Origin: Candidatus Methylomirabilis sp.
Lineage (GTDB): Bacteria; Methylomirabilota; Methylomirabilia; Methylomirabilales; CSP1-5
Direction: 5' to 3'
Length of the DNA: 48,411 bases
Assembly (NCBI GenBank): GCA_012974305.1
Contig: JAAXQN010000022.1
Coordinates: 1-48,411, forward strand
Every line of letters begins with the position of its first letter. Positions within the stretch are counted from its first letter, which is position 1. Shown here one piece after another: positions 10,179 through 42,108 of this stretch. Both the position numbers and the translations under genes were made by a program. A model generated the notes under the pieces. The model saw only the letters and a program-made list of their open reading frames with translations. It was not told the origin of the DNA and searched no databases.

Positions 10179-10179
10179 G

Positions 10180-11736: not shown

Positions 11737-11754
11737 TTCTTCCTGCCAGGGTGC

Positions 11755-11819
11755 ATAGGGGATTTGCCTAGGCAGAATATAGGACTTTCCCCTAGCCAAA
11801 GCATAGAGCTTTCTCCGAT
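11755..11819. promoter_or_regulatory. Three 17-bp semi-palindromic boxes at 24-bp period (putative NarL/LuxR-type sites)
   Basis: ATAGGGGATTTGCCTAG (11755), ATAGGACTTTCCCCTAG (11779), ATAGAGCTTTCTCCGAT (11803), upstream of the MscS gene. Confidence 0.45.
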
Positions 11820-11980
11820 ACAAAAAACGGGTCCGCCCCTGATTTTCAAGAGGCAGCTTTCTCGGTACGGTTATCACACGAAAAAGCATCCTCGGGGTTT
11901 CTTGATTTGTCATCCTTTTTTCGAACGAGATGACGGCGTTGACTGTTTGTGGTTACCCCCAACGAAGGAGGCGAAAAGGT

Positions 11981-27454: not shown

Positions 27455-27473
27455 AAGGAAAGGAGTTTGATGC

Positions 27474-28565
27474 ATGACGGTCAAGATCTACATCCCGACG
27501 CCGTTTCGAGCGATTACTCGCAACCAGGCCACGGTGGAGGTCGAAGGGGAGACTATCCAGCACCTCATCGAGGCCCTCGAAGCGGAGTATCCCGGCATCC
27601 GGGAGCGGGTTTTTGATGAGGCAGGAGAGATTCATCGGCATATCAATATCTATGTGAACGAAATCGCCGTCGAGAACCTCAAGGGCAAAGATACGGCATT
27701 GGTGGAGGGGGACGAGGTGTCCCTGATCCCGGCCATTGCCGGAGGGGCGATTCCCTTTACCGAGGAGCAAATCAAGCGGTACAGCCGTCACATCATCCTG
27801 CCCGAGGTAGGTGGGAAGGGACAACGGAAACTCCTCAACAGTAGCGCCCTCTTGGTTGGGGCCGGTGGTCTGGGCTGTCCTGCTGCCCTCTATCTAGCCG
27901 CTGCGGGTGTGGGCCGGCTCGGGATCGTCGATTTCGATCTGGTGGATCTCAGCAACCTCCAGCGACAGATCCTTCACCACACCCATGACCTGGGGCGACC
28001 CAAGGTCCTTTCGGCGGTGGACAGCATCGGGGATATCAATCCCGATGTCAAGGTCGAGCCCCATCAGGCCCAGCTCTCGTCGGAGAATGTGAAAGAGATC
28101 ATCGCCGGCTACGACGTAATCGTCAACGGCTGTGACAACTTTCCCACCCGATACCTGTTGAATGATGCCTGTTACTTTCTGAAGAAGCCGATGGTGGATG
28201 GCAGCATTTTCCGCTTTGAAGGGCAGGTCACGGTCTTCTCACCGGGGAAAGGGTGTTACCGCTGTCTGTATCCTGCGCCGCCCCCGCCCGGGCTCGTCCC
28301 GAGTTGTGCAGAGGCTGGGGTCCTCGGAGTCCTCTGCGGGATCATTGGCAGCCTCCAGGCGCTCGAGGCGATCAAGCTCATCCTCGGCGGGGGAGACCCC
28401 CTCGTTAATCGCCTGCTCTTTTTCGATGCGATGACGTTGGAGTTCCGTCAAGTCAAGATCCGGCGGGATCCAGAGTGTCCGGTCTGCGGCGATCATCCCA
28501 CGATCACGGACCTGATTGACTACCACGAATTCTGCGGCGTCCCGCAGGGGCAGGTGGTGAGCTAG
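27474..28565 (+). CDS. moeB: MoaD/ThiS ubiquitin-like domain fused to MoeB-type E1 adenylyltransferase
   Basis: Residues 1-91 are a Ubl (IYIPTP, NIYVN, PAIAGG). Then RYSRH, GAGGLG, SNLQRQ, DNFPTRY, CYRC, PSCAEAG, CPVC; no C-terminal rhodanese domain. Confidence 0.9.
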   Translation: MTVKIYIPTPFRAITRNQATVEVEGETIQHLIEALEAEYPGIRERVFDEAGEIHRHINIYVNEIAVENLKGKDTALVEGDEVSLIPAIAGGAIPFTEEQIKRYSRHIILPEVGGKGQRKLLNSSALLVGAGGLGCPAALYLAAAGVGRLGIVDFDLVDLSNLQRQILHHTHDLGRPKVLSAVDSIGDINPDVKVEPHQAQLSSENVKEIIAGYDVIVNGCDNFPTRYLLNDACYFLKKPMVDGSIFRFEGQVTVFSPGKGCYRCLYPAPPPPGLVPSCAEAGVLGVLCGIIGSLQALEAIKLILGGGDPLVNRLLFFDAMTLEFRQVKIRRDPECPVCGDHPTITDLIDYHEFCGVPQGQVVS

Positions 28566-28570
28566 GAATA

Positions 28571-28591
28571 GTTCACAGTTCAGAGTTCATG
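28571..28591. repeat. Heptamer array (GTTCANN)3
   Basis: GTTCACA GTTCAGA GTTCATG just after the moeB stop. Confidence 0.6.
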
Positions 28592-28688
28592 GTCGAAGGA
28601 TGATGGATGCAGAAGATAAAGAAGGCAGCCGGTGGATTCTCATCCTCTCTGGAAATGACAGGACTAAGGCAATGAGGAGATCAGCTTA

Positions 28689-29645
28689 ATGCGAAGGAAA
28701 CTTGTGACGCGTGCACCTTACCTCAGCGGGATTTTTGCCTTACTACTCGCTACTTCCGTGGCGTGTAGCCGGCAGGAGGCCAAGAAATCAGGATTCCCGA
28801 ACGGCCAATTGCTGGTGGAAACCCAAGAGGTGGAGCGTCACCTAGGCGACCCTGATCTTCGCCTGGTGGACCTTCGGGCGCAAGGACCTCACGGCTACGA
28901 AGAGTATGCCTTTGGGCATATCCCTGGGGCGGTTTATCTGAACTGGCAGGACATCGACGATCTGAAAAGTAATCAGAAAGGCCTGCCGATGGATCAGGCC
29001 AAGGCGGAGGCTCTGTTCAGTCGGTTGGGGATTGACGAAAACACGGGGGTCATCGCGTACGACGACTCGGGCGGGCTCTTTGCAGCACGCCTCTTCTTTG
29101 TCCTCGAATTCTTTGGGCACACCAAGGTTGCCATTCTCAACGGGGGATTTTCGAAGTGGATGAACGAAGACCGGGATCTCGGCGACGAGGATCCGAAGAT
29201 CACGCCTAAAAAATTCGTGGCCCGGTCAAACCCCAACCTGATCGCTACCGCTGAGTGGGTGAAAGACAACCTCAAGAATCCGACAGTCTGTATGGTGGAT
29301 GCCCGAAGTCCACTGGAATTCCAGGGGAAACGGACCGACCCGGGGAGAATCAAGGATTCCGACATCAAGCGGGGAGGCCGAGTCCCTGGGGCAGTGCTCA
29401 TCGATTGGGTCGATACGATCAACCGCGAGGACCATACTTTTAAGAGCACCGCAGAACTCAGAGAAATCTTTGAAGAAGCTGGGGCGACGAAGGACCGGGA
29501 GATTGTGACCTATTGCCGGACGGGGGTGCGAGCAGCTCACAACTACTTCGTAGCCAGACTGCTCGGGTACGAGAAGGTGCGTAATTACGACGGATCCTGG
29601 ATTGATTGGGGAAATCGGTCAGGGGTTCCAGTGGAGAAGTCATAA
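28689..29645 (+). CDS. Double-domain rhodanese/sulfurtransferase, predicted lipoprotein
   Basis: Signal with lipobox SVAC; GHIPGA, LNGG, DARS, active loop YCRTGVR, YDGSWIDW. Confidence 0.88.
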   Translation: MRRKLVTRAPYLSGIFALLLATSVACSRQEAKKSGFPNGQLLVETQEVERHLGDPDLRLVDLRAQGPHGYEEYAFGHIPGAVYLNWQDIDDLKSNQKGLPMDQAKAEALFSRLGIDENTGVIAYDDSGGLFAARLFFVLEFFGHTKVAILNGGFSKWMNEDRDLGDEDPKITPKKFVARSNPNLIATAEWVKDNLKNPTVCMVDARSPLEFQGKRTDPGRIKDSDIKRGGRVPGAVLIDWVDTINREDHTFKSTAELREIFEEAGATKDREIVTYCRTGVRAAHNYFVARLLGYEKVRNYDGSWIDWGNRSGVPVEKS

Positions 29646-29684
29646 GACCGGTGCGGGCGGCCGCATGAGAACACAGGGAGAGCA

Positions 29685-29978
29685 ATGAGCGTTCAGATTC
29701 ACGTTCCCCAGATCTTCCGAAAGCACACCGGTGGCGCAAAGACGGTGGTCGTCGAGGGTCAAACGCTCCGCGAGGTGCTGGATAGCCTCGACAAGGCATA
29801 TCCGGGCCTTCGGGACCGGTTGCTGGACGGTAAAGGGATTCACCGGTTTGTCAACATTTACCGCAACGACGAGGATATCCGATTCCTCGAGTCTCTGGAT
29901 ACCGAAGTGCGAGAGGGGGATAGCATCTCGATTCTTCCTGCGGTTGCGGGAGGAGGTCACTTTGGCGCCCAAGGATAA
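29685..29978 (+). CDS. cysO: CysO-like ubiquitin-like sulfur carrier (MoaD family) with 7-residue tail after Gly-Gly
   Basis: IHVPQIFRKHTGG, YPGL, FVNIY.NDEDIRFL..LDT, LPAVAGG-GHFGAQG; directly upstream of cysM and mec. Confidence 0.8.
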   Translation: MSVQIHVPQIFRKHTGGAKTVVVEGQTLREVLDSLDKAYPGLRDRLLDGKGIHRFVNIYRNDEDIRFLESLDTEVREGDSISILPAVAGGGHFGAQG

Positions 29979-30003
29979 GGTGATCCGCGGCGGCGAGGAA
30001 GCC

Positions 30004-30948
30004 ATGAGGCCACGGATCGCGAGCGACATCGTTGACGCGATTGGAAATACTCCCCTGGTTGAGGTTTCCCGGGTGAGTCCAAAGCCGTCGGTCCGGATCT
30101 TCTGTAAGCTCGAGTTCTACAATCCGACGGGGAGCCTGAAGGACCGGATTGCCAAGTATATGATCGAACAGGCAGAGCAGCGAGGGGATCTGACCCCGGG
30201 CCAAACCATCATCGAGCCGACGAGCGGCAATACCGGCATCTCCCTAGCGTTGATCGGCCGGCGGAAGGGTTATACGGTCAAGGTCGTCGTTCCAGAGAAC
30301 ATTACCGTCGAGCGGCGGCAACTGCTGGAGCTGTACGGTGCAGAAATCATTTACTCCGACGCCCGCCGGGGAACCAACGGGGCCATCGAAATGGCAAAGA
30401 AGCTGGCTGCCGAGAACCCGGACTGGCATATGCCATACCAGTACGGCAATCAGGCCAATGTCCAGGCGCATTACGAGACCACCGGTACGGAGATCCTCGA
30501 GGCGCTACCCGACGTCGATGTTTTTGTGGCGGGACTCGGGACCGGCGGCACTCTCATGGGCGTTGGCCGGCGGCTGAAGGAGGTAAACTCCAAAACCCAG
30601 GTGATCGCCGTCGAGCCGCATCCAGGCGATCTTGTACAGGGACTCCGGAGCTTGGAAGAGGGGTTCATTCCGCCTATCTTGGATATGAGTCTGCTGGATG
30701 GAAAGATCATTGTCGATTCTCGCTGTGCGTTCGCCCTCACCCGGGATCTTACGTTCAAGGAGGGAATCTTTGCCGGGGTCTCTTCGGGTGCCGTGCTCCA
30801 CTGTGCCATCCGAACGGCGCACAAAATGGAGCAGGGAAATATTGTGTGCCTGCTTGCTGATGGTGGTTGGAAGTATGTCAGCCTTGGTGTGTGGGCCAAA
30901 GAGCTCCCGGACCTTGGGGAGGATGTCTACAGTCATATCTGGTGGTAG
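30004..30948 (+). CDS. cysM: CysM-like (thiocarboxylate-dependent) cysteine synthase; alternative TTG start 29962
   Basis: IGNTPL, NPTGSLKDR, EPTSGNTG, YQYGN, GLGTGGT, GLRSL.EGFIPP, ADGGWKY, C-terminal WW; flanked by CysO and a JAB protease. Confidence 0.82.
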   Translation: MRPRIASDIVDAIGNTPLVEVSRVSPKPSVRIFCKLEFYNPTGSLKDRIAKYMIEQAEQRGDLTPGQTIIEPTSGNTGISLALIGRRKGYTVKVVVPENITVERRQLLELYGAEIIYSDARRGTNGAIEMAKKLAAENPDWHMPYQYGNQANVQAHYETTGTEILEALPDVDVFVAGLGTGGTLMGVGRRLKEVNSKTQVIAVEPHPGDLVQGLRSLEEGFIPPILDMSLLDGKIIVDSRCAFALTRDLTFKEGIFAGVSSGAVLHCAIRTAHKMEQGNIVCLLADGGWKYVSLGVWAKELPDLGEDVYSHIWW

Positions 30949-30983
30949 TCGTAAGCGACGAGTGCTGAGAGTCGAGAGCGGAG

Positions 30984-31385
30984 ATGTTCAAGCTCGAAAA
31001 GCGATTCGCCACGGAGATCATCGATCACGCACGGGCTGAGGCGCCGAACGAGTGTTGCGGTCTTCTGGCTGGGGAAAACGGCACGATCCTTCAACTGTAC
31101 CGATGTGATAGTGCCGAGAAGAGCGCGTACCGATACTACCTCGACCCGAAGGATCAGCTCCGGGTGATGCGAGAGCTCGATGAAAAGGGGTGGGAGCTGC
31201 TTGGAATCTACCACTCCCACACCCACACGGAGGCCTATCCGTCAAAAACGGATGTGGAACTTGCTTTCTATCCCGACGCGCTATACTTCATCGTTTCCCT
31301 CGAGAAACCGAGCGAACCGGTGATTCGGGTTTTTCGAATTAATGATGGGAACATCACAGAGGAGGACGTGATGATCGGGCAGTGA
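30984..31385 (+). CDS. mec: JAB/JAMM (M67, Mec+-like) metallopeptidase
   Basis: PNECCGLL and GIYHSHTHTEAYPSKTD (E..HxHx7Sx2D). Confidence 0.88.
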   Translation: MFKLEKRFATEIIDHARAEAPNECCGLLAGENGTILQLYRCDSAEKSAYRYYLDPKDQLRVMRELDEKGWELLGIYHSHTHTEAYPSKTDVELAFYPDALYFIVSLEKPSEPVIRVFRINDGNITEEDVMIGQ

Positions 31386-31407
31386 AGGGGGGTTTTTTAT
31401 ATGGAGA

Positions 31408-31432
31408 AAACCCGAGTAATTCAATCGGGATT
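31408..31432. promoter_or_regulatory. Putative second Rrf2 operator
   Basis: 25-bp palindrome AAACCCGAGTAATTCAATCGGGATT, resembling the IscR type-1 box, in an AT-rich spacer. Confidence 0.6.
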
Positions 31433-31484
31433 ATCGTCTTGGTGAATCAAGAAACTTTACCAATTAGAAAGGGGAGGGGCAATC

Positions 31485-32327
31485 ATGGCGACTTATGCAC
31501 ATCCTGAGGTACTGGTGGAAACCCAGTGGGTTGCAGACAACCTGAAGGACCCCAAAATCCGGCTGGTGGAAGTCGATGTCGACACGGCCGCCTATGGTGA
31601 GGGGCACATCCCCGGCGCCGTGGGCTGGAACTGGAAGAGCGACCTGGAAGAGACCCTGGAACGGGATATCGCCCACCAAGTGACCCTGGACAAGCTGCTC
31701 GGCAGGTCGGGGATTGCCAACGACACGACCGTGATCTTATACGGGGATAACAATAACTGGTTTGCTACGTATGCGTTCTGGCTCCTGAAATATTACGGCC
31801 ATGCGGCCGCCCGGCTCATGAACGGGGGACGGGCGAAATGGATTGCCGAGGGGCGGCCCATGACGAAGGAGACCCCAAAGCACCCGGCCACGACCTACAA
31901 GACGCAGGGGCCGGACAAGAGTATCCGGGTGGTGCGGGAGGAGGTGATCGCGTCGGTGGGGAAGGCAGGCCTGGGCTTGGTGGATGTGCGCTCGCCGAAA
32001 GAATTTAGCGGTGAGATCCTGGCCCCCGAGAACCTGCCGCAGGAGGGGGCGCAGCGGGGGGGCCACATTCCGGGCGCGGCGAACATCCCCTGGAGCCAGG
32101 CGGTCAGGGAAGACGGCACCTTTAAGAGTGTAGAGGATCTCAAACAGCTGTACCAGGGGAAGGGGATCGTTCCGGACAAGGAAATCATAGCCTACTGCCG
32201 GATCGGTGAGCGCTCCTCGCACACCTGGTTTGTGCTGAAGTATCTGTTGGGCTACCCCAAGGTGGTGAATTACGACGGGTCGTGGACCGAGTACGGCAGC
32301 CTGGTCCATGTCCCCATCGAGAGATAG
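31485..32327 (+). CDS. Thiosulfate sulfurtransferase (CysA2/SseA-type double rhodanese)
   Basis: YAHPEVLV, GHIPGA, YGDNNNWFA, DVRSPKEF, active loop YCRIGERS, YDGSWTE. Confidence 0.93.
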   Translation: MATYAHPEVLVETQWVADNLKDPKIRLVEVDVDTAAYGEGHIPGAVGWNWKSDLEETLERDIAHQVTLDKLLGRSGIANDTTVILYGDNNNWFATYAFWLLKYYGHAAARLMNGGRAKWIAEGRPMTKETPKHPATTYKTQGPDKSIRVVREEVIASVGKAGLGLVDVRSPKEFSGEILAPENLPQEGAQRGGHIPGAANIPWSQAVREDGTFKSVEDLKQLYQGKGIVPDKEIIAYCRIGERSSHTWFVLKYLLGYPKVVNYDGSWTEYGSLVHVPIER

Positions 32328-32338
32328 GGAGTGGAGAA

Positions 32339-33007
32339 GTGACACAGCCCCAGTCGGATGAACCTTTTCTGAGGATTGGCCCGGCGGAAGCCAAGGCATT
32401 GATAGAGAAAGGGGTCCAGTTAGTGGATGTCCGGGAACCCCAAGAGTACGCCGAGATGCGGATCGCGGGCTCGGTTCTCTTTCCTATGGGCACGCTCCTC
32501 AAGGCCCCGCGAGACATTCTGAAGGAGGGGCCGGTTCTGCTTGTGTGTTCAGAAGGGCTTCGGAGTGCAGTTGCCTGTGAGGCGGCAGCGGCGATTGGGG
32601 TTGAGGAGGTCTATAACCTCGAAGGGGGGCTGCAGCGCTGGCAGGAGGAAGGGTACACGCTGGAGACAGGTGAAGTGAGTGAGCCGGTGATCGCTGAGAC
32701 ACCGGCCGTGCCCCGACCGCCGGCGCAGGATCTTCTCGTCTCCGGCGAGCGCCTCGCACGGGTCCATCGCTTCCGGTATCAGAAGGCCGTAGCATGCGCC
32801 TTGGGCACTATTGAGCTCGTCGTGGAGGAAAGCGTGGGCGAAATGGAGGAGCCATCGAAGCGCTGCGTGGCGAGACCTGATCACCCGGAGCGTGTCCCGA
32901 GACCAGATCTCACGGTTTACGGTGAGAGTGTTGAGGATGTCCTGCGAGTCCTGATTGAAAAACTCAGGGGGCGGCGCCCTCAGGAGATCTTTTTACCCAC
33001 GGGGTAA
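32339..33007 (+). CDS. Single rhodanese domain plus unknown C-terminal domain
   Basis: VDVREPQEY..RIAGS, active loop CSEGLRS, NLEGG..W; then a Pro-rich linker and about 85 aa without recognised motif. Confidence 0.8.
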   Translation: MTQPQSDEPFLRIGPAEAKALIEKGVQLVDVREPQEYAEMRIAGSVLFPMGTLLKAPRDILKEGPVLLVCSEGLRSAVACEAAAAIGVEEVYNLEGGLQRWQEEGYTLETGEVSEPVIAETPAVPRPPAQDLLVSGERLARVHRFRYQKAVACALGTIELVVEESVGEMEEPSKRCVARPDHPERVPRPDLTVYGESVEDVLRVLIEKLRGRRPQEIFLPTG

Positions 33008-33065
33008 CGCCACCGTCATCGGCGCCCCCGAGGAATTTTGGCTTTGCTCAAGGAAGGATGATCTC

Positions 33066-33830
33066 GTGATTGTTTCGGTACCGGCAATTGCCTTCGTAGG
33101 ATTAGCGTCGGGCTGGGTCATGGGGATTTCTGCCGCGGCGTGGGGGGCTTTGAGCGTCCCATTGCTGATTCTCATCGGAGTCGAGCCCTTGGTCGCGATC
33201 AATGCGTCTCTGGCGGCATCCATCTTACTCAGTCTGTTCGGCGGCGTGACCCATTGGCGCTATGACCGATCACGGGTAGTTCCTCTCCTCCCGCTGGTGT
33301 TCGGAGGTGTGGGAGGCGCATTCCTGGGGAGTTTACTGAGCCCTGCGCTCCCAACACAAACCCTTCGGATTTTGATTGGCTTTACAACTCTGAGTATCGG
33401 TATTCTGACGCTTTTCAGGAAAAATGGGAACGGGTCGCAAAACAATTTTGAAGCCGTGAAATGGAACGACAGGAGGGCGATCCTTTTCGGAATCGGGGTA
33501 GTGGCCGGATTATCCGCCGGTGCGTTCGGCTCGGGTTGGGGGACGATCGGTGTTGTATTGCTGATGTGGACAGGCATTCCCCCCCACACCGTGGTGGGCT
33601 CATCACTGCTAGCTCGGTCATTGGTGGCCTCAGCCGCGGCCGGCTCGTATACTCTTCAGGCAGGAAATTTCCCCCTGGGGGTCTTTCTACCGCTTCTGAT
33701 TGCAGGGGGCTTGGGGGTATATCTCGGGGTCCGGACGGCCAATCGGGTTTCGGTGGCCGGGATGCGAGTGCTCCTCGGCGGTGTGGTCACGATGGTGGGG
33801 ATCCTGATCGTGGTCGGAACTATGTGGTAA
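33066..33830 (+). CDS. TauE/SafE-family sulfite/sulfur-compound exporter
   Basis: About 8 TM helices in two Gly-rich repeats (G..SG..G....GAL.VP; GL.AGAFG.G.G..; VGSSL). Confidence 0.82.
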   Translation: MIVSVPAIAFVGLASGWVMGISAAAWGALSVPLLILIGVEPLVAINASLAASILLSLFGGVTHWRYDRSRVVPLLPLVFGGVGGAFLGSLLSPALPTQTLRILIGFTTLSIGILTLFRKNGNGSQNNFEAVKWNDRRAILFGIGVVAGLSAGAFGSGWGTIGVVLLMWTGIPPHTVVGSSLLARSLVASAAAGSYTLQAGNFPLGVFLPLLIAGGLGVYLGVRTANRVSVAGMRVLLGGVVTMVGILIVVGTMW

Positions 33831-33893
33831 GGACTGTTCACCTAACTGTCACCCTTAAACGGACATGCGAACGTCCGGAAGGGAGGATGGGGA

Positions 33894-35687
33894 ATGCAGC
33901 AGTTGGAAAATCGGGACGCCAAAAAGGCGACCATCACGATAGAGGGTAAGCCGCTGGCCATTCGTCCCTCCTATGCCCAGCAGGAGGAGATCGATACCTT
34001 TGACGAATTCGTGCAGCGTTTCTGGCAAAAACAGATATCGGAGGTGGAGTTCCAGCGCTTCCGCCTCCAGCACGGGGTCTATGGTCAACGCCAAGAGGGG
34101 GTCCAGATGGTTCGCATCAAGATCCCCTGGGGCGGGCTGAGCGCCGAACAACTGGAGGCGTTAGCCGACCTCGCGCAACGGACCCCTCGTCGTATCGGTC
34201 ACGTCACGACGCGTCAGAACGTCCAGTTTCACTTTGTCAAGCTGGCTGAGGCTACCGAGTTCTTGGGCGCCCTGGAAAAGGTGGGATTGACGACGCGGGA
34301 AGCCTGCGGGAACACGGTTCGGAATGTCACCGCAGGAGCCTGCTCTGGCGTCTGCCCGCGCGAGGTGTTCGACGTGACGCCTTATGCCGAGGCCGTGGCG
34401 CGCTTCCTCCTACGCAACCCGATGAACCAGAATCTTCCCCGCAAATTCAAGATCGCCTTTTCGGGGTGCCCGGACGATGAGGGGATCACGGCAATCCATG
34501 ATATCGGCGGACGGGCCGTTCTCCATCAGGAGAATGGGGTAAGCCACCGGGGCTTTCGGTTGATCGTGGCTGGGGGACTCGGCCCGGTGCCACACCATGC
34601 CCAAGTCCTCGAAGAGTTCACTCCAGCGGACGAGCTGCTGGCGACGGTGGGCGCCATTGTCAGGGTGTTTGACCGATTTGGGAACCGAGAGAACCGGAGC
34701 AGGGCCCGGATGAAGTTCGTGCTGCAAGAATTCGGTCTGGAAAAGTTCCGGAACCTGGTTTTTAAAGAGCGGACTGGTCTCAAGTCAACCATGGGCGGAA
34801 AGTTCCCCCCAATTGTCATCCGGGAAGAAGGTCCCCCGGCCCCAAGATCCACCCCAGTGTCCATCTCGGGTCTGGAAGACCCCGCCTACGAGTTGTGGCG
34901 GCGTAGCAACGTCCGGCCCCAAAAGCAGCCTGGCTACGTAATGGTCACGGTTCGTTTGGAGCTCGGCGACTTCACGCCGCTGCAGCTTCGGCTCCTGGCC
35001 TTCTGTGCTCGTGAGTTTGGTGACAGCACTGTGAGGACCACAAACCAACAGAACTTCCTCCTTCGGTGGATTCCGGAGGAGGCCCTGGTGCCGATGTACC
35101 GAGTCCTTCGTCGTGCAGATCTGGCCCGGTCCGGTGCCGATCGACTTATGGATGTTACGGCCTGTCCCGGTGCAGACACCTGCCAGCTCGGGATTACGTC
35201 TTCCCGGGGGCTCGCGTTGGCCATAGGTCGGATGGTGGAGGAGAAGCACCCGGATCTGGCAGAGGAAGTGGGTGGACGGATTAAGATCTCGGGCTGCCCG
35301 AACTCCTGCGGTCAGCATCACATCGCGACCATCGGATTTTATGGCGGTTCGAAGAAATTCGGCGGGCGTCAGGCTCCGACCTATCAGATGCTCCTTGGAG
35401 GCGTGTGGGGAGATAGCACCGCCCGATTCAGCCAGCCCGCGCTACGGCTCCCAGCGAAGAACATTCCCAATGCCATCGACAGGCTCCTGGAGATTTATAA
35501 GGCGAACCGGACAAACGGCGAGAGCCTCTTCCCATTTCTGGAGCGTTTCGGACCGAAGCAGGTGGTGCAAAACCTGGCGGAGTTCACCGCGATACCCAGC
35601 TATGAAGAAGCCCCGGACGGGTTCCAGGATTGGGGCGAGGAGAAGGCCTTCGAGCTCAAGACTGGGGTTGGTGAGTGCGCGGTGTGA
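33894..35687 (+). CDS. Ferredoxin-type siroheme sulfite/nitrite reductase (probably assimilatory sulfite reductase)
   Basis: MVRIKIPWG, HVTTRQNVQ, ACGNTVRN, LPRKFKIAFSGC, CPGADTC..SGCPNSC cluster ligands; sulfate-assimilation context. Confidence 0.9.
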   Translation: MQQLENRDAKKATITIEGKPLAIRPSYAQQEEIDTFDEFVQRFWQKQISEVEFQRFRLQHGVYGQRQEGVQMVRIKIPWGGLSAEQLEALADLAQRTPRRIGHVTTRQNVQFHFVKLAEATEFLGALEKVGLTTREACGNTVRNVTAGACSGVCPREVFDVTPYAEAVARFLLRNPMNQNLPRKFKIAFSGCPDDEGITAIHDIGGRAVLHQENGVSHRGFRLIVAGGLGPVPHHAQVLEEFTPADELLATVGAIVRVFDRFGNRENRSRARMKFVLQEFGLEKFRNLVFKERTGLKSTMGGKFPPIVIREEGPPAPRSTPVSISGLEDPAYELWRRSNVRPQKQPGYVMVTVRLELGDFTPLQLRLLAFCAREFGDSTVRTTNQQNFLLRWIPEEALVPMYRVLRRADLARSGADRLMDVTACPGADTCQLGITSSRGLALAIGRMVEEKHPDLAEEVGGRIKISGCPNSCGQHHIATIGFYGGSKKFGGRQAPTYQMLLGGVWGDSTARFSQPALRLPAKNIPNAIDRLLEIYKANRTNGESLFPFLERFGPKQVVQNLAEFTAIPSYEEAPDGFQDWGEEKAFELKTGVGECAV

Positions 35688-35700
35688 GGAAGGTCGATTG

Positions 35701-36627
35701 ATGGGACTGAAGGGTCTGACAGTGGCGGTCACCGGAAGCAGGCGAGCCTCGGAACTCGCCCAGCTCATCACGAACTCCGGCGGAGTTCCGTATGTGGCTC
35801 CAACGGTGGGGATCGAAGTCCAGGAGGACGTGGACCGTCAAACAGAAGAGTTGGTCCGTAGGATCGTCGACGGAGAATTTGATTATGCGATCTTCATGAC
35901 GGGCCCCGGCGTATATCGATTGATGTCGACAGCGCAGCAGCTCGGTTTGGAGCGTGAGGTAGTTGATGTGTTGAACCGCACGAGTGTCGTCGCCAGGAGC
36001 CAGAAACCACAGAAGGTATTAGAAAAGTCCGGGGTCAGGGTGACCATGGTGCCATCCGACAATACGTCGGAAGGCATTGCCGCCGAGATGGCCAAACTCG
36101 ACGTCAGCGGCAAAGGCATCGCCGTGCTCTGGCATGGGGATTCCCATCCGATGCTGCGTGAGGTCCTGGAAAGAAGAGGAGCCAAGGTCTTTGAGGCGAT
36201 GGCATACACATATTCGTTGGACCTGGGAAAACGGGGTGCTGATCTCTTAGAGGCTGTGGGGTTTAAGTATATCCCCCCCGGCGAAGGCAAGATGCTTGAG
36301 CTTATCAACGATCTGGTGAGGGGCATGATTCATATCATCACGTTTACCAGTCCCCCATCGGCCAGAAACCTCTTTCGGTTTGCAGAAGCCCACGGGCGAG
36401 ACATCGATCTTCGGAGGTCCCTGAACGAGAAGGTTATCGTTGTTGCCGTCGGACCGCCCACGCGGAGGAGCATTGAGGAGGACGAAGTTCAAGTCGATGT
36501 CATGCCGGATGTCTACAAGTTGGGACCCATGGTGAAGGCTACGGTTGATTATCTGGCGCAAGACCACTCACACCCGCGAAAAGGGGCTCTGGCCAGGATT
36601 CAACCTGAGTCAATTGCGGGTGGATAA
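35701..36627 (+). CDS. hemD: Uroporphyrinogen-III synthase
   Basis: LKGLTVAVT..RR, IFMTGPG, VVARS.KP, TFTSPP, AVGPPT, LGPMV. Confidence 0.8.
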   Translation: MGLKGLTVAVTGSRRASELAQLITNSGGVPYVAPTVGIEVQEDVDRQTEELVRRIVDGEFDYAIFMTGPGVYRLMSTAQQLGLEREVVDVLNRTSVVARSQKPQKVLEKSGVRVTMVPSDNTSEGIAAEMAKLDVSGKGIAVLWHGDSHPMLREVLERRGAKVFEAMAYTYSLDLGKRGADLLEAVGFKYIPPGEGKMLELINDLVRGMIHIITFTSPPSARNLFRFAEAHGRDIDLRRSLNEKVIVVAVGPPTRRSIEEDEVQVDVMPDVYKLGPMVKATVDYLAQDHSHPRKGALARIQPESIAGG

Positions 36628-36676
36628 CCGAGCGGCCAGGAATCGGTCTGTAAACAAAGCCGAAAGGGGGGGACAC

Positions 36677-37426
36677 ATGGAGACGAAGAATCGACTGGAT
36701 GAGGTAGCGGTGGAAGAACTGGCGACTCGCTTTGAGGGGAAAGGTCCCGAGGTGGTCATCCAGTGGGCCCTTGAGCACTTTCACCCCCGCATCGTCCTGG
36801 CGTCCAGCCTGCAGGCGGAAGACATGGTCATTTTGGACATCGCCTGGAGGATAAATCCCGACGTCCGGGTCTTTACCCTCGATACTGGCCGGCTCCATGA
36901 AGAGACCTACGCCAGTATGGAGCGGGTCCGGGAAAAGTACGGCATTGCCATCGAGAGTTTTTTTCCGAGCCGGGAGGCGGTGGAGGCCCTGGAGCGCGAG
37001 AAGGGATTTTATTCCTTCCGGCAGAGCGTGGAGGAACGGAAGTTTTGCTGCGGGATACGCAAGGTGGAGCCGCTGGCACGCGCCCTCAAGGATCGCGATG
37101 CGTGGATCACCGGGCTTCGACGAGAACAGGCGGTGACCCGGACCGTGCTCCGGAAGGTTGAGTTTGATCACAGTCATGGAATCATTAAGGTCAATCCTTT
37201 GGCTGACTGTTCGGAAGGCTACGTCTGGGACTACATTCGGACCCATGGTGTCCCATACAACGCACTGCACGACTTAGGATATCCGAGCATTGGGTGTGCC
37301 CCGTGCACGCGTGCGATCAAGCAGGGGGAGGATGTCCGGGCCGGACGGTGGTGGTGGGAAAATCCAGAGAGTAAGGAATGTGGTCTGCACGTCACACCGG
37401 TGGAGACGGGCCAGTCCACTGCGTGA
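36677..37426 (+). CDS. cysH: APS/PAPS reductase, 4Fe-4S APS-reductase type
   Basis: [42 protein letters not shown]. Confidence 0.95.
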
Positions 37427-37442
37427 GGGGGCAAGGAGTCGC

Positions 37443-38612
37443 ATGAGTATTATTACACCGCATGGAGGGGAACTGGTTGACCGGCTAATCCCGCCGGAGG
37501 AGCGACAGGAGGCACGACGCCGGGCGAGAGACTTAACGCCGGTGCACCTGAATCGGCGACAGATCTCGGATCTGGAGTTGATCGGGATCGGGGCTATGAG
37601 TCCGCTCGACGGGTTCATGGGTCAGGCCGACTACAAGCGAGTAGTGGACGAGGCGCGTCTGGCAAGCGGGCTCCCCTGGTCCATCCCCGTTACGTTAGCC
37701 GTGCGGGAGACCGAGGCCGCCTCCGCTCGAGTGGGCGAAGAGATCTCCTTGGTGGACGACCATGGGGATCTTCTGGGCTTGCTAGAGCTTCGAGAGAAAC
37801 TCTCTTATGATAAAAAGCGCGAGGCCCAGGAGGTATACCGAACTACCGAAGAGGCCCATCCGGGAGTCCGCGTACTCTATGCCCAGGGCGATGTGCTCTT
37901 GGCCGGACCAATTCGACTCTTGGAGCCTCCTGACGATCAGGAGTACGGCCCCTACCACCTGACCCCCGCAGAGACCCGGCAGGCGTTCAACAACCAGGGT
38001 TGGCGAACCGTCGTGGGCTTCCAGACGCGAAACCCCGTCCACCGGGCCCACGAATACATCCAGAAGTGTGCTCTGGAGGTCGTGGATGGCCTCCTCCTGC
38101 ATCCATTAGTTGGTGAGACGAAGCAGGATGACATTCCCGCGGAAACCCGGCTGCGCTGTTACGAGGTGCTTTTGGAAGGGTATTATCCCAAAGATCGTGT
38201 CATCCTGGCGGTCCTTCCGGCGGCCATGCGCTATGCCGGCCCGCGAGAAGCTATTTTCCATGCGTTGATTCGGAAAAATTACGGGTGTACCCATTTCATC
38301 GTCGGCCGAGATCATGCCGGCGTGGGGAATTATTACGGCACCTTTGACGCCCATCTGATCTTTCGGGACTTCGCCCAGGAGGAGCTGGGGATTACTCCCC
38401 TCTTTTTTGACCATGCCTTTTATTGTCGAAGTTGCCAGGGAATGGCCACCACCAAGACCTGTCCGCACGGTCCTCAGGAGCGAGTAAGCCTTTCGGGGAC
38501 CAAGGTCCGAGAGATGTTGCACCGGATCGAACTTCCCCCTTCCGAATACACGCGGCAAGAAGTGGCGGAAGTGCTGCTCCAATGGGCCAATACGGATCAG
38601 TACCGTATCTGA
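37443..38612 (+). CDS. sat: Sulfate adenylyltransferase (ATP sulfurylase)
   Basis: [48 protein letters not shown]. Confidence 0.96.
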
Positions 38613-38708
38613 CCTTCGACTTTCCCGCCTCCTGACAGCCTCGAGGGACCTGCGTTTGTTGCGAGGAAATGTCGGGGAATTCGGGAAGGATATTAAGGAG
38701 AAGCAGCG

Positions 38709-39701
38709 ATGATTGGATCAATGGTCACGTTTCTTGCTGGCGTCGTCGCCCGTCTCAATTGCTCGAAGCTTGCGCGGCGGGGGAGCGAAATGCTCCAGCG
38801 ACTTGCCGAGCGAATAGATCACTCCGGGCAGGGAAGAGGGCGTCTTCACGCGGGGAACGGTTGGGGTGTGCCCTTGAGGAGAGGTGGACGGGTCTCTCTG
38901 GTCGGGGCAGGGCCAGGCGAACCGGGTCTCCTGACCCTCAAAGGAAAGCTTTGCCTCGAAGAAGCGGACGTGGTCGTCTACGATTATTTGGTGAACGAAT
39001 CTCTCCTGACGAACTGCCGCCCCGAGGCAGACCGAATCCATGTTGGGAAGCCGGGGTCGTACCAGAGGCTGTCCCAGGAGGAGATTAATCGCCTCTTGAT
39101 CGAGCGGGCCAGGGAAGGCAAGGTGGTCGTCCGTCTCAAAGGGGGGGACCCATTTATCTTTAGCCGCGGAGGGGAGGAGGCGGAAGCACTTGCCGAGGCA
39201 GGGATTCACTTCGAGGTCGTGCCGGGAGTTACCTCGGCTATCGCCGTCCCAAGTTATGCCGGGATTCCCCTCACACACCGAGACTTGGCTTCCACGGTGG
39301 CGTTTGTGACCGGGAACGAAAACCTGACGAAGGAGACCTCAGGAATCGACTGGAAAGCCGTCGCCGGGATGGGGACCATAGTCTTTCTCATGGGAGTCAG
39401 TCGGCTGTCCCTGATTGTGGCGAGGCTCGTTGAGGAAGGGCGCGACCCAGAGACTCCCGTCGCGGTGATACAGTGGGGGACCTTGCCCCGGCAAAAGACC
39501 GTCACGGGCACGCTGCGAGACATTCGAGAAAGGGTGAGGGGGATGCGGTCACCCGGTATCATCGTCGTCGGAGAGGTGGTAAGGGTTCGAAACCGCCTCA
39601 GATGGTTTGAGGAAGGCATGTTCGTTCGCGAGACTGCAGCGACCCAAACGCAGAGACGCGAGGCGGTCCTCAGCAAGCTGATCCAACCGGAGTCTGCCTA
39701 G
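38709..39701 (+). CDS. cobA: Uroporphyrinogen-III C-methyltransferase (true start probably downstream)
   Basis: LVGAGPG, VYDYLV, RLKGGDPF, VPGVTS, GIPLTHR, IIVVGEV; the first ~55 aa look non-conserved. Confidence 0.92.
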   Translation: MIGSMVTFLAGVVARLNCSKLARRGSEMLQRLAERIDHSGQGRGRLHAGNGWGVPLRRGGRVSLVGAGPGEPGLLTLKGKLCLEEADVVVYDYLVNESLLTNCRPEADRIHVGKPGSYQRLSQEEINRLLIERAREGKVVVRLKGGDPFIFSRGGEEAEALAEAGIHFEVVPGVTSAIAVPSYAGIPLTHRDLASTVAFVTGNENLTKETSGIDWKAVAGMGTIVFLMGVSRLSLIVARLVEEGRDPETPVAVIQWGTLPRQKTVTGTLRDIRERVRGMRSPGIIVVGEVVRVRNRLRWFEEGMFVRETAATQTQRREAVLSKLIQPESA

Positions 39702-39762
39702 GCTTGTGAGGTCGAAAAATTTTCGGTACAATGCATCTGCGTTTTCCAACGCGGAGGCAGCT

Positions 39763-40002
39763 TTGGCGCGAAGACGAGTACATCTCACTTTTCCCGGAAA
39801 GCTCATGAACGAACCACTGTTGTGGAAGATGAGTCAGCAGTTCGATCTCGTCTTCAACATCCGTCGGGCGGACTTCACCGAGGGGATTGGGTGGCTTATG
39901 GCGGAGTTGGAGGGAGATGAAAAGGGGCTGCAGAGCGGTATACGATGGCTGGAAGAACAGGGCGTCCATGTGGACCCGATCGAGCAGGACGTCGTCCAGT
40001 GA
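39763..40002 (+). CDS. Stand-alone NIL-domain protein
   Basis: TTG after GGAGG; VHLTFP..EPLLW..F.LVFNIRRA..GWLMAELEG..L..GV.V. Confidence 0.8.
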   Translation: MARRRVHLTFPGKLMNEPLLWKMSQQFDLVFNIRRADFTEGIGWLMAELEGDEKGLQSGIRWLEEQGVHVDPIEQDVVQ

Positions 40003-40010
40003 GATTTCGC

Positions 40011-40040
40011 TTGACAGCATCGGCCCCTTTTGGTGATATT
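40011..40040 (+). promoter_or_regulatory. Putative sigma-70 promoter of the riboswitch-led operon
   Basis: TTGACA (40011)-18 nt-GATATT with TG extension, 25 nt before the aptamer. Confidence 0.55.
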
Positions 40041-40064
40041 AGTGGTTAATTGAATAGAATTTCA

Positions 40065-40190
40065 CTTCTCATCGAGAGCGGCTGAGGGACTGGCCCGACG
40101 AAGCCGCGGCAACGGCCCGCCGTCATGGACGGCGGGAGACGTGCTAACTCCTGCACCTCGATCTTGCGTGTCGGGGTGAGAGATGAGAGG
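40065..40190 (+). ncRNA. SAM-I (S-box) riboswitch aptamer
   Basis: CTCATCGAGAG..GAGGGACTGGCCCGACGAAGCC.CGGCAAC..GTGCTAACTCC..AGATGAG; P1 CTTCTCATC/GATGAGAGG. Confidence 0.95.
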
Positions 40191-40211
40191 GTGGATGCGC
40201 AGTGGTTATGC

Positions 40212-40244
40212 AACCCCTTCTCATACGGAGAAGGGGTTTTTTTT
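40212..40244 (+). terminator. Riboswitch-controlled intrinsic terminator
   Basis: AACCCCTTCTC/GAGAAGGGGTT stem plus T-run; the 5' arm CCCTTCTCAT can instead pair with P1 3' strand ATGAGAGGG (antiterminator). Confidence 0.9.
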
Positions 40245-40259
40245 GGGATTGTAAGGGGT

Positions 40260-40493
40260 ATGGCGACACGGCGTCTCTCTCTGACGTTTCCTTCGGATTT
40301 GATTAAGGAACCGGTCATCTACCGGGTTTCGAAGGAGTGCAACCTGGTTCCCAACATTCGAAAGGCCCGGATCACCGATACCACTGGTGAGGTGATTTTG
40401 GACTTTCAGGGACGAGAGGAAGACCTCGAGAGAGGGATAACCTACCTCGTTGACCGCGGCATTACGGTTGAGGAAGTTCAGGAGGAACGATAA
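40260..40493 (+). CDS. Stand-alone NIL-domain protein
   Basis: LSLTFP..IKEPVIY..NLVPNIRKA.I..GEVILDF.G..L..GI.V. Confidence 0.82.
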   Translation: MATRRLSLTFPSDLIKEPVIYRVSKECNLVPNIRKARITDTTGEVILDFQGREEDLERGITYLVDRGITVEEVQEER

Positions 40494-40536
40494 CGGCGCT
40501 GGATATGTCCGCCAGGTCCATGCGCAGGAGGGTTCG

Positions 40537-41817
40537 ATGGCGAAAATCAAGGGGCTACGGTGCCGTGAGTGCGGCCGTCCCTATCCGGCCAAGCCGCTAC
40601 ATGTCTGTGAGTTCTGCTTTGGGCCGTTGGAAGTTGACTACGATTACGCCAGTCTGGAGAAGGTAGTCAACCGCAAGCGGATCGAGGCCGGCCCACCGAC
40701 TATGTGGAGGTATCGCGATTTGCTTCCGATCGAGCAGGAGGTGCCAGTCGGAGAGCACTGCGGCATGACCCCCTTGATCCGGGCAAGACACCTCGAAAAA
40801 GCCCTTGGGGCACAGGAAGTCTACATCAAAAACGATGCGGTCTGCCACCCGTCCCTCTCTTTTAAGGACCGTGTCGTCTCGGTCGCCGTGACCAAGGCGA
40901 TGGAATTTGGTTTTGACGTCGTTTCATGCGCCTCGACCGGGAACCTCGCCAACTCTGTTGCTGCCCATGCGGCGGAAGCGGGTCTCAAGAGTTTTATCTT
41001 TGTCCCGGCCGGCCTGGAGCAGGGAAAGATCGTTGGGACATTGATTTACAGTCCCATTTTGGTGGAAGTCGATGGGAACTACGATGAAGTCAACCGGCTG
41101 TGCAGCGAGATAGCCGACAAATATGGTTGGGCTTTCGTGAACATCAATATCCGGCCGTATTACGCAGAGGGTTCCAAAACCTTCGGCTATGAGATTGCCG
41201 AGCAACTGGGCTGGCATGCTCCGCGACACATCATTGTCCCTTCCGCCGGTGGTTCGCTAGTCACGAAGATTTGGAAAGGGCTGAAGGAGTTTTGCCAGTT
41301 GGGACTGATCCCGGAGTGTCATACCCGGATGCACGTGGCACAGGCGGCTGGGTGCAATCCGATCGTGGCGGCTATTCGCAACGGGTGTGACACCATCCGG
41401 CCCGTCCGCCCTGACACGATTTGTAAGTCGTTAGCCATTGGCAACCCCGCGGATGGATACTATGCCTTCAAGGCAGTCGAGGAGAGCACCGGGTATGCGG
41501 CCGATGCCAGCGACGAAGAGATCGTCGATGGGATGAAGCTTCTCGCCGAGACCGAGGGAATCTTTACGGAGACCGCGGGCGGGGTCACGGTGGCTGCGGC
41601 CAAGCGATTGATCGATACGGGGGTTATTCCCCGTGACGAGAGCATTGTGCTTTCCATCACTGGAAACGGCCTCAAGACGCAGGAAGTGGTCTTTAACGCC
41701 CTCAGGCCCACCGTTTCCGTCAAGCCGTCGTTGAAATCCTTCGATGAGGCGATCGCGGAACGGCCAGATCTCGAGGCAGATTTCATTTCTCAGGCCCCAA
41801 CCAACATTCAGGGATAA
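40537..41817 (+). CDS. Threonine-synthase-like PLP enzyme (candidate O-phosphohomoserine sulfhydrylase)
   Basis: N-terminal CREC..CEFC, MWRY..LLP, SFKDR (PLP Lys), CASTGN, EGSKT, SLAIGNP, ITGNGLK; RBS AGGAGG. Confidence 0.88.
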   Translation: MAKIKGLRCRECGRPYPAKPLHVCEFCFGPLEVDYDYASLEKVVNRKRIEAGPPTMWRYRDLLPIEQEVPVGEHCGMTPLIRARHLEKALGAQEVYIKNDAVCHPSLSFKDRVVSVAVTKAMEFGFDVVSCASTGNLANSVAAHAAEAGLKSFIFVPAGLEQGKIVGTLIYSPILVEVDGNYDEVNRLCSEIADKYGWAFVNINIRPYYAEGSKTFGYEIAEQLGWHAPRHIIVPSAGGSLVTKIWKGLKEFCQLGLIPECHTRMHVAQAAGCNPIVAAIRNGCDTIRPVRPDTICKSLAIGNPADGYYAFKAVEESTGYAADASDEEIVDGMKLLAETEGIFTETAGGVTVAAAKRLIDTGVIPRDESIVLSITGNGLKTQEVVFNALRPTVSVKPSLKSFDEAIAERPDLEADFISQAPTNIQG

Positions 41818-41832
41818 CGTGTGGAGGAAACC

Positions 41833-42108
41833 ATGAGCGTCCTCGTCCGCATTCCGACACCGCTCCGAAGCCTGACGAAGGGCCAGGCTGAGGTTCAGGA
41901 AGAGGGGAGCTCTGTTCAGGAGCTCATAGAAAACCTGGAGGACAAGTACAAGGGATTAAAAGAGCGGCTTTGTGATGGGCAGGATATCCGCCGGTTCATT
42001 AATATTTATGTAAACGACGAGGATATCCGCTTCCTTCAAGGAACCGAGACACCGCTTAAGCCTGGAGATCAAATTTCTATCGTCCCAGCCATTGCTGGGG
42101 GGAGGTAA
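41833..42108 (+). CDS. MoaD/ThiS-family ubiquitin-like sulfur carrier ending GG-R
   Basis: RIPTPLR.LT.G, RRFINIYVNDEDIRFL, PAIAGGR*; RBS GGAGGA. Confidence 0.92.
   Translation: MSVLVRIPTPLRSLTKGQAEVQEEGSSVQELIENLEDKYKGLKERLCDGQDIRRFINIYVNDEDIRFLQGTETPLKPGDQISIVPAIAGGR

Follow-up and report, generated by a model that had tools for sequence, protein, structure and literature searches.

We analyzed a stretch of 48,411 nucleotides (the window) from Candidatus Methylomirabilis sp. (assembly GCA_012974305.1, contig JAAXQN010000022.1), and in particular three ubiquitin-like proteins (Ubls) of the sulfur-carrier type, the activating enzyme (E1) to which one of them is fused, and a JAB/JAMM metalloprotease encoded among them. 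The window is contig C248 of a 2.82-Mb metagenome-assembled genome (MAG) that consists of 282 contigs and is rated 94% complete, and its nearest database proteins are labelled Candidatus Methylomirabilis, NC10 or Methylomirabilales. On the + strand, an unbroken row of genes runs from CysK through Ubl3 (26525-42108), as identified from translations of open reading frames (ORFs) together with Pfam and NCBIfam, with Rfam used for a riboswitch (Table 1). We counted one ThiF-family E1, one Prok-JAB protein and three rhodanese proteins in the window, along with three fold-type-II pyridoxal phosphate (PLP) enzymes (CysK, CysM and a ThrC-like protein) and a Sat-CysH-sulfite reductase route; this is the gene content that an earlier reading of the same DNA, the first-pass annotation, had claimed, and Pfam bears it out. 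CysK sits directly 5′ of the fusion gene, outside the start coordinate of that annotation. By its predicted functions, the cluster joins sulfate reduction, a classical CysK, a CysO/CysM/JAB route to cysteine and a MetM/MetO-type route to homocysteine.

Table 1. Features of the gene row at 26525-42108 of the window, with the family matches on which each assignment rests.
Feature	Position	Strand	Matches and remarks
CysK, classical O-acetylserine sulfhydrylase	26525..27454	+	Pfam PALP; NCBIfam cysK equivalog, 438.3 bits (cut-off 350.95)
Ubl1-E1 fusion	27474..28565	+	Pfam ThiS, residues 7-91; ThiF, 103-337; without rhodanese domain
RhdA, two-domain rhodanese	28689..29645	+	Pfam Rhodanese, two stretches
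CysO-like carrier (Ubl2)	29685..29978	+	Pfam ThiS, residues 6-90
CysM, O-phosphoserine-sulfhydrylase-like cysteine synthase; predicted user of a carrier thiocarboxylate	30004..30948	+	Pfam PALP
JAB/JAMM metalloprotease, Mec-like, 133 aa	30984..31385	+	Pfam Prok-JAB, 93.5 bits
RhdB, two-domain rhodanese	31485..32327	+	Pfam Rhodanese, two stretches
RhdC, one rhodanese domain and a C-terminal stretch of ~115 aa	32282..33007	+	Pfam Rhodanese, residues 34-123; start codon uncertain
TauE/SafE-family membrane protein	32955..33830	+	Pfam TauE, 123.2 bits; start codon uncertain
Sulfite reductase, siroheme/4Fe-4S type	33894..35687	+	Pfam NIR_SIR and NIR_SIR_ferr, two stretches each
HemD-like uroporphyrinogen-III synthase (siroheme supply)	35701..36627	+	Pfam HEM4
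CysH, PAPS/APS reductase	36677..37426	+	Pfam PAPS_reduct
Sat, ATP sulfurylase	37443..38612	+	Pfam ATP-sulfurylase and PUA_2
CobA-like uroporphyrin-III methyltransferase	38709..39701	+	Pfam TP_methylase; start codon uncertain
NIL1, small NIL-domain protein	39706..40002	+	Pfam NIL, 59.1 bits
S-adenosylmethionine (SAM) riboswitch	40066..40189	+	Rfam RF00162, 82.9 bits (gathering score 44.4), full model 1-108
NIL2, small NIL-domain protein	40260..40493	+	Pfam NIL, 56.1 bits; start is the ATG after the riboswitch
ThrC-like PLP enzyme with N-terminal Cys-rich ribbon; candidate MetM-type homocysteine synthase	40537..41817	+	Pfam PALP; NCBIfam thrC TIGR00260, 281 bits
Ubl3, MetO-like carrier	41821..42108	+	Pfam ThiS, residues 9-94; likely start ATG 41833

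None of the three Ubls ends in a free Gly-Gly (GG), as the first-pass annotation had observed, and we confirmed all three termini in the translations and in the DNA. Ubl1 continues as ...LIPAIAGG(90-91)AIPFTEEQIKRYSRH... in frame and without a stop, so that the carrier domain (27474-27746, with the GG codons at 27741-27746) runs directly into a MoeB-type adenylyltransferase (27747-28562). The CysO-like carrier ends AVAGG-GHFGAQG-TAA, with its GG codons at 29949-29954 and a seven-residue tail at 29955-29975, and Ubl3 ends AIAGG-R-TAA, with its GG codons at 42097-42102 and a single Arg codon at 42103-42105; the ThiS profile stops at residue 90 in the first and at residue 94 in the second. From here on, we call a carrier masked when a tail or another domain follows its GG. 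The three carriers are paralogues with 44-50% identity, and residues 1-91 of Ubl1 match the solved CysO chain 3dwg_C (E 1e-16). Residue 96 of the fusion aligns with residue 5 of the solved MoeB 1jw9_B, which leaves practically no linker, and the spacing from GG to the RYSRH motif is 10 residues in 111 of 119 homologues. We also considered whether a separate E1 could arise from an internal start, and rejected this possibility because reading by eye found no in-frame ATG, GTG or TTG in 27700-27820. An AlphaFold2 model of the fusion, built from a 60-sequence alignment, had a mean predicted local distance difference test score (pLDDT) of 85 and a predicted template modeling score of 0.69, with confident Ubl and E1 domains and a pLDDT of <50 at residues 89-91 and 102-107. 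A low-confidence junction of this kind would be compatible with an exposed cleavage site and proves nothing.

The protease gene begins 36 nt past CysM. Its product carries the motif HSHTHTEAYPSKTD (E...HxHx7Sx2D, a complete JAMM), and an upstream E-CC-G was read in the translation. A tblastn search of the genome with the window E1 found only the query itself, making it the sole MoeB-type E1 found there, and no second Mec-type JAB was found by tblastn at E<=1e-5. The first-pass annotation had spoken of one E1 and one JAB, which is correct for the MoeB and Mec types and too broad for the genome as a whole, where two divergent E1-like genes (69 and 63 bits on PF00899, versus 291 bits for the window E1) and weaker JAB-like genes (on contigs C3, C22, C185 and C198) are also encoded.

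Masking extends to carriers outside the cluster. Seven ThiS-family proteins in the genome scored over the PF02597 cut-off, three of them in the window. Three more are a MoaD beside MoaE (PPVSGG-GHV), a ThiS beside ThiG (AMAGG-MGRIR) and a small TtuB-like Ubl ahead of a TtuA-type thiouridine synthetase (AISGG-STDEV), on contigs C93, C208 and C259, with ThiS thus on a contig other than that of the window. All six sulfur-type carriers of the genome are masked (6/6). In the four genomes in which the MoaD tail was read, it has three residues with a final V (GHV, TNV, TDV and IYV). The seventh ThiS-family Ubl, on the - strand of contig C6 (~10172-11363), ends in free GG (KIRGG-stop) beside one of the divergent E1-like genes (ThiF, 69 bits); the ORFs neighboring it had no Pfam match, and it looks like a separate, non-sulfur kind of system. 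On the + strand of contig C198 (~11746-13564), a short E1-like ORF (ThiF, 63.5 bits) lies behind an ORF with weak JAB similarity; together they are possibly a conjugation or defense-type module.

Is the Ubl-E1 fusion conserved among related bacteria? We searched 60 relatives from the same order. A single open frame spans at least residues 1-357 of the fusion in 41 of them, and contig ends split it in another 5; 7 carry an E1 that starts near residue 90 and lacks Ubl1 (G015 and six f5 genomes), 2 carry only an E1 paralogue of 62% identity, and 5 gave no match to either the fusion or the E1. The junction GG was retained in all 30 loci read. A second E1 paralogue occurs in five f4 genomes, where it matches residues 95-357 of the window E1 at ~62% identity; its long open frame contains a single in-frame TGA, which could be a selenocysteine codon or could separate two adjacent genes. 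When residues 1-140 of the fusion were searched against the database, 4316 proteins matched at E<=0.001, and the best 120 of these all had both ThiS and ThiF domains. G90 and G91 were invariant in 60/60 aligned fused homologues, and the alignment showed that the fused domain keeps the conserved positions of free carriers.

The tails of the stand-alone carriers are far more variable. Orthologues of CysO (>=57% identity, 18 genomes) were masked in 18/18 cases, by tails of 1-31 residues with no common sequence or by in-frame fusion to CysM; the latter was found in four genomes of the same genus, and the two genes of the window are kept apart by a TAA and 25 nt. Ubl3 orthologues are present in 51/61 genomes, and we read the tails of 30. 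Masked tails accounted for 24 of these, 18 with one extra residue (R, K, T, A, S, Y or N) and 6 with 2-22 extra residues (for example RP, RR, RI, SCV and longer), and the remaining 6 ended in free GG. Within the genus, the Ubl3 tail is exactly one residue in 13/13 genomes. The C-termini of 30 ThiS-family matches were read in five relatives; in 26 of them GG was followed by a tail or by a fused E1, MoaE or ThiG, and 4 were free. MoaD-MoaE and ThiS-ThiG fusions also occur in relatives. Two of the genomes, G007 and G021, are unpublished. G007 is counted among the four CysO-CysM fusions, the 18 CysO orthologues, the 13 Ubl3 tails of the genus and the split fusions, and G021 is counted among the six free-GG Ubl3 cases, the 18 CysO orthologues, the 41 in-frame fusions and the five f4 genomes with a second E1 paralogue.

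These data also bear on whether the tails and the fusion are errors of assembly, frameshift or stop codon in a MAG broken into 282 contigs. Both are seen again in dozens of independent assemblies, two single-contig genomes among them, and in other phyla, and we rejected this explanation, to which we give practically no weight. The first-pass annotation had named such errors, or orthologues ending in free GG, as findings that would count against it; recurrence disposes of the former, and the latter exist for Ubl3 (6/30) and were not seen for CysO (0/18).

Genome-wide counts of the protease were less informative. A strong Prok-JAB match (E<=1e-10) was present in 52/61 genomes of the order, including 25/25 of high quality, and was the only one in 49 of those 52. 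Prok-JAB was also matched in 6/14 control genomes, and co-occurrence at this scale is weak evidence, Prok-JAB being common. We obtained a sharper view from gene neighborhoods beyond the order, for which one genome per species was taken and the resulting 80 loci were annotated with our own BLAST and hidden Markov model (HMM) scripts. Ubl-E1 fusions were found in 18/80 loci, in Chloroflexota, Dehalococcoidia, Moorellaceae, heliobacteria, Acidobacteriota, Armatimonadota, Gemmatimonadota and a Hadesarchaeon. The xAGG motif is kept in 18/18 fused loci, followed by a low-complexity linker of 9-31 residues to RYSRH. A JAB gene lies within 2.5 kb of the fusion in 14 of the 18, and the genomes of the other 4 encode a Prok-JAB elsewhere. 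JAB was found in 1/17 unfused E1-rhodanese loci, and among plain-E1 loci it was found in 21/25 that contain a Ubl versus 3/20 that do not. Searching the 80 loci with an HMM built from the JAB matches gave no extra JAB genes (39 before, 39 after). In seven of the fused loci, a CysM-like gene, a JAB and a ThiS-ThiF-Rhodanese triple fusion form a compact operon, and six of these seven had no other Ubl in the locus.

Stand-alone carriers in the 80 loci numbered 38, of which 26 were masked and 12 had free GG although JAB was present. Masking is therefore the majority state for these carriers and is not peculiar to this genome. Five of the masked carriers, of the MetO-like kind, are fused after GG to a NIL domain; a Pfam check of one of them (locus L112) placed ThiS at 5-91 and NIL at 100-163. 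A fused Ubl with an adjoining stand-alone CysO, as in the window, was found in five Chloroflexota loci.

The first-pass annotation had held that Ubl1 lacks an evident client enzyme, a view that the comparison does not support. The best solved relatives of CysM are 3dki, 3dwg and 3dwi (“Cysteine synthase B | O-phosphoserine sulfhydrylase”; E 1e-92, residues 8-313), and its score on NCBIfam cysKM (342.6 bits) is slightly below the cut-off of 344.15. In family f7, the fusion and CysM occur together in 18/18 genomes, and no stand-alone CysO orthologue of >50% identity was found in any of the 18; two of them (G042 and G048) have an extra Ubl3-like gene on another contig that is 48-49% identical to CysO. 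The complete genome G036 has only five ThiS-family matches (MoaD-like, ThiS-like, a small Ubl, Ubl3 and the fusion) and no stand-alone CysO. Since f7, G036 and six of the seven three-gene operons offer no other CysO-type carrier, CysM has an obvious partner there in the fused Ubl, which could work only once released. By extension, the likely client of Ubl1 in the present genome is CysM, and Ubl1 and CysO would be redundant. CysM and CysO seemed to be missing from three relatives that have the fusion (G004, G008 and G013); a contig break explains the case of G004, where the contig that carries JAB has the final 84 residues of CysM at its edge. We also considered CysK, whose adjacency to the fusion is conserved in relatives, as a private client of Ubl1, and set it aside as less likely because it is a classical O-acetylserine sulfhydrylase (its best solved relatives are classical cysteine synthases, E 1e-107), because CysE is encoded elsewhere in the genome, and because the adjacency persists in G015, which lacks Ubl1.

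On the basis of these comparisons, we propose the following pathway. Sat, CysH and sulfite reductase would reduce sulfate to sulfide, with the HemD and CobA-like genes supplying siroheme, and the classical CysK would consume sulfide directly. The single MoeB-type E1 would load sulfur, from sulfide or from a persulfide on a separately encoded rhodanese, as a C-terminal thiocarboxylate on CysO-type carriers. CysM would then convert O-phosphoserine to carrier-Cys, the MetM-like ThrC homologue would convert O-phosphohomoserine to carrier-homocysteine, and JAB would hydrolyze the bond after Gly-Gly to free the amino acid. The same JAB would strip anything behind GG before the E1 adenylates the carrier, so that the Ubl1-E1 polyprotein would yield one CysO-type carrier and one E1, and the masked MoaD, ThiS and TtuB-like carriers are probably handled by this E1 and JAB as well. 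Since an amidase specific for Gly-Gly is required regardless of masking, selection on where the stop codon falls after GG would be weak; carriers would be free to gain tails (R, GHFGAQG) or to run into the next gene, which is E1 here and CysM, MoaE, ThiG or NIL in relatives. We put the probability of this whole pathway, with trimming by JAB, a Ubl1-E1 polyprotein and neutrally drifting tails, at about 0.6. Its central part, shared maturation by JAB together with the polyprotein, is likely; this part of the first-pass annotation is favored by the invariant GG, the linkage of JAB and the operons with a sole carrier, all of which are comparative.

Could the Ubl on the E1 instead be a permanent module that is never cleaved? 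It might serve for docking, regulation or as a decoy, by occupying the carrier site or by recruiting JAB or client enzymes, with only the stand-alone carriers being trimmed and used. Several findings that weigh against our proposal favor this idea. A stand-alone CysO adjoins the fused Ubl here and in the five Chloroflexota loci, and such repeated redundancy may point to a function of the fused domain's own. The near-absent linker in this order could hinder access of a protease. Ubl1 is dispensable, since G015 and the six f5 genomes carry an unfused E1. Iyer et al. 2006 (PMC1779556) likewise proposed for the ThiF-fused Ubl a role other than that of ThiS. An uncleaved module would not by itself account for a GG that is invariant in the aligned homologues and in the fused loci of other phyla, for the retention of the conserved positions of free carriers, or for the tight linkage of JAB; it would also leave CysM without a CysO-type carrier in f7 and the three-gene operons, and established E1 chemistry requires a free carboxylate for adenylation. 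We therefore regard a permanent module as unlikely. Two more cautions apply to the proposed pathway as a whole: in a MAG that is 94% complete, the count of a sole E1 and a sole JAB may be incomplete, and every cleavage, sulfur transfer and substrate assigned here, as well as the neutrality of the drift, is deduced from sequence and gene neighborhood.

The first-pass annotation went further and made JAB a gate of the network, that is, masking would be adaptive and a regulated JAB checkpoint would choose when and which carrier enters the thiocarboxylate network, much like the activation of a zymogen. The masking of all six sulfur-type carriers in the genome and the lack of any free-ended CysO orthologue would fit such a gate, and the constant one-residue Ubl3 tail in the genus could mean constraint, which would also tell against neutral drift. 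Neither the sequence nor the length of the tails is conserved, however, and free GG occurs in 6 of 30 Ubl3 orthologues and in 12 of 38 stand-alone carriers of other phyla with JAB present. Seven relatives have an unfused E1, the Pfam search found no regulatory domain in the 133 residues of JAB, and regulation of the methionine branch is provided by a SAM riboswitch. Given the free variation of the tails, the read-through into downstream genes, the free-GG orthologues and the unfused E1s, we read masking as tolerated drift and consider an adaptive gate improbable. A different extension of the pathway, in which the JAMM protein is the obligatory maturase of all carriers (for cysteine, homocysteine, thiamine, molybdopterin and tRNA 2-thiouridine) and the E1, made as a self-priming polyprotein, passes one carrier per E1 directly to its own active site once cleaved, seems to us conceivable and rather doubtful.

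A further possibility is that the Ubls, the E1 and JAB mainly form a protein-conjugation system of the SAMP or TtuB kind, with precursor processing and deconjugation. Ubl1 and CysO marginally exceed the cut-off of 60 of the NCBIfam SAMP1 equivalog (60.7 and 61.0), with Ubl3 at 55.2, and the E1 and JAB match the UbaA and desampylase models, both below their cut-offs (353.3 versus 450, and 90.5 versus 130). The SAMP/UbaA/desampylase set is thus not matched as a whole at equivalog level. Moreover, every Ubl lies beside a PLP enzyme for sulfur incorporation in a sulfate-reduction cluster, a SAM riboswitch is present, and CysM resembles a carrier-dependent enzyme. Conjugation as the main function is in our view very improbable; a side role in conjugation could still exist alongside sulfur carriage.

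We next consider the methionine branch. The SAM riboswitch lies directly ahead of NIL2, the ThrC-like gene and Ubl3, between NIL1 and NIL2; this arrangement predicts that NIL1 and NIL2 belong to different transcription units and that the ThrC-like gene and Ubl3 are under SAM control. Ubl3 starts 4-16 nt past the stop of the ThrC-like gene, and relatives retain this pair, which has two small NIL-domain proteins alongside it throughout the order. The NIL domain may sense methionine, a guess based on the C-terminal domain of MetN. Three further ThrC paralogues in the genome could supply threonine synthase. A genome search with PF01053 gave no convincing enzyme, with three weak partial matches, the best at 35.1 bits and none in the window. 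The branch would fit a MetM/MetO route via O-phosphohomoserine.

Among the other genes of the row, RhdA has a hydrophobic N terminus that reads as lipoprotein-like in the translation. RhdC matches the rhodanese portion of the rhodanese-MoeB model PRK08762, and no Pfam family matched its C-terminal ~115 residues (window 32660-33004); in two relatives (G019 and G016), the counterpart of this C-terminal part has a small ORF of its own, located between RhdB and CysM. In G036, a Sulf_transp (YeeE/YedE-type) permease and two TusA genes (locus L048, 5375-6948) replace RhdA and CysO, which suggests delivery of thiosulfate or persulfide by TusA in place of a rhodanese.

The closest known counterpart of the cysteine branch is the actinobacterial CysO/CysM/Mec+/MoeZ system, a protein-thiocarboxylate pathway of cysteine synthesis. 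As in that system, a CysO-type carrier lies beside an O-phosphoserine-sulfhydrylase-type CysM with an adjacent JAMM gene, and one E1 would act across pathways. Unlike that system, residues follow GG here, and no CysO orthologue was found with a free end. The E1 also differs from MoeZ in having an N-terminal carrier and no C-terminal rhodanese (374.6 bits on the MoeZ model NF005902, versus a cut-off of 647), with the rhodaneses encoded separately and sulfate reduction in the same cluster. Reportedly, Wolinella trims HcyS-Ala with HcyD, in a cluster with sulfate-assimilation genes and an E1 without rhodanese. That arrangement, reported for HcyS/HcyD/HcyF, resembles ours in its tailed carrier, its JAB and its rhodanese-less E1 in a sulfate-assimilation cluster; here, however, the homocysteine client would be ThrC-like and not a PF01053 O-acetylhomoserine sulfhydrylase.

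Sharing of one E1 by MoaD and CysO has been described (PMC3227635). For the methionine branch, Mec is described as maturing MetO and MoeZ as activating it, with MetM a ThrC homologue (10.1101/2024.10.14.618325), and a SAM riboswitch lies upstream of metM in S. albulus (PMC12172450). Our cluster, compared with these descriptions, shares a ThrC homologue adjoining a ThiS-family carrier, an upstream SAM riboswitch and a Mec-type JAB, and differs in its two NIL-domain genes and in the fusion of its E1 to a Ubl. Removal by JAMM proteins of residues after GG is described for QbsE-CF/QbsD and proposed for the CxnE-decapeptide/CxnF (PMC5925218); as in those cases, the residues would have to go before adenylation, and a JAMM gene lies in the cluster. 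QbsE, CxnE and HcyS are each single carriers of one pathway, whereas the cluster described here has three masked carriers and its genome has six.

Fusions of carriers to partner proteins are likewise on record: a Deinococcus MoaD-MoaE fusion that is cleaved (PMC8832034), moaX, a linear MoaD-MoaE fusion that is likewise cleaved (PMC4326299), and a SAMP1-MoaE fusion with HvJAMM1 (PMC4443979). By analogy, the Ubl1-E1 carrier is joined through GG to a partner in one frame and may need release in order to function; the partner here is the activating E1 and not a client. Iyer, Burroughs and Aravind (2006) describe a Ubl on the N terminus of ThiF, in one case beside a cysteine synthase, as well as operons with ThiS/MoaD, JAB and E1, type 4e of which also has Sat, PAPS reductase and sulfite reductase, and they predict that JAB frees fused ThiS/MoaD carriers (PMC1779556). 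Our fusion resembles theirs in placing the Ubl N-terminal to the E1 Rossmann domain. Theirs are described as having a Ubl distinct from ThiS and as lying mostly in thiamine operons with a stand-alone ThiS, unlike the CysO-like domain with invariant GG in a cysteine/sulfate cluster found here. An archaeal ubiquitin precursor is processed by Rpn11, a protease of the JAMM type (PMC6043591). Ubiquitin precursors (poly-ubiquitin and ubiquitin-ribosomal protein fusions) offer an analogy, being Ubls with a C-terminal extension or fusion that undergo GG-specific release, although they belong to conjugation systems and are processed by other protease families in eukaryotes.

A full-text search, with subscription journals mostly outside its coverage, turned up no report of a Ubl-E1 fusion of the CysO type or of its cleavage, and database sources label the fusion merely “MoeB” or “adenylyltransferase/sulfurtransferase.” The novelty is modest, in that a widespread, uncharacterized CysO-type Ubl-E1 polyprotein with invariant GG is added to a scheme of trimming by protease that was already known; the result is no surprise to a specialist, and the fusion is common in related bacteria and not unique to this one. 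If JAB does cut the fusion, this would be, among searchable papers, the first sulfur carrier shown to be made as a polyprotein with its own E1, and Gly-Gly-specific precursor processing, which is taught as a feature of eukaryotic ubiquitin, would be routine in bacterial sulfur metabolism. Were a single protease the obligatory maturase of all carriers, the cell would have a bacterial counterpart of ubiquitin-precursor processing, with the protease as a control point or a vulnerability. For the reading of related genomes, a gene labelled “threonine synthase” that follows a SAM riboswitch probably encodes a homocysteine synthase, and the absence of PF01053 alone does not make this organism a methionine auxotroph. 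Carriers that are tailed, or fused to E1, CysM or NIL, should by the same reasoning be annotated as probable functional precursors.

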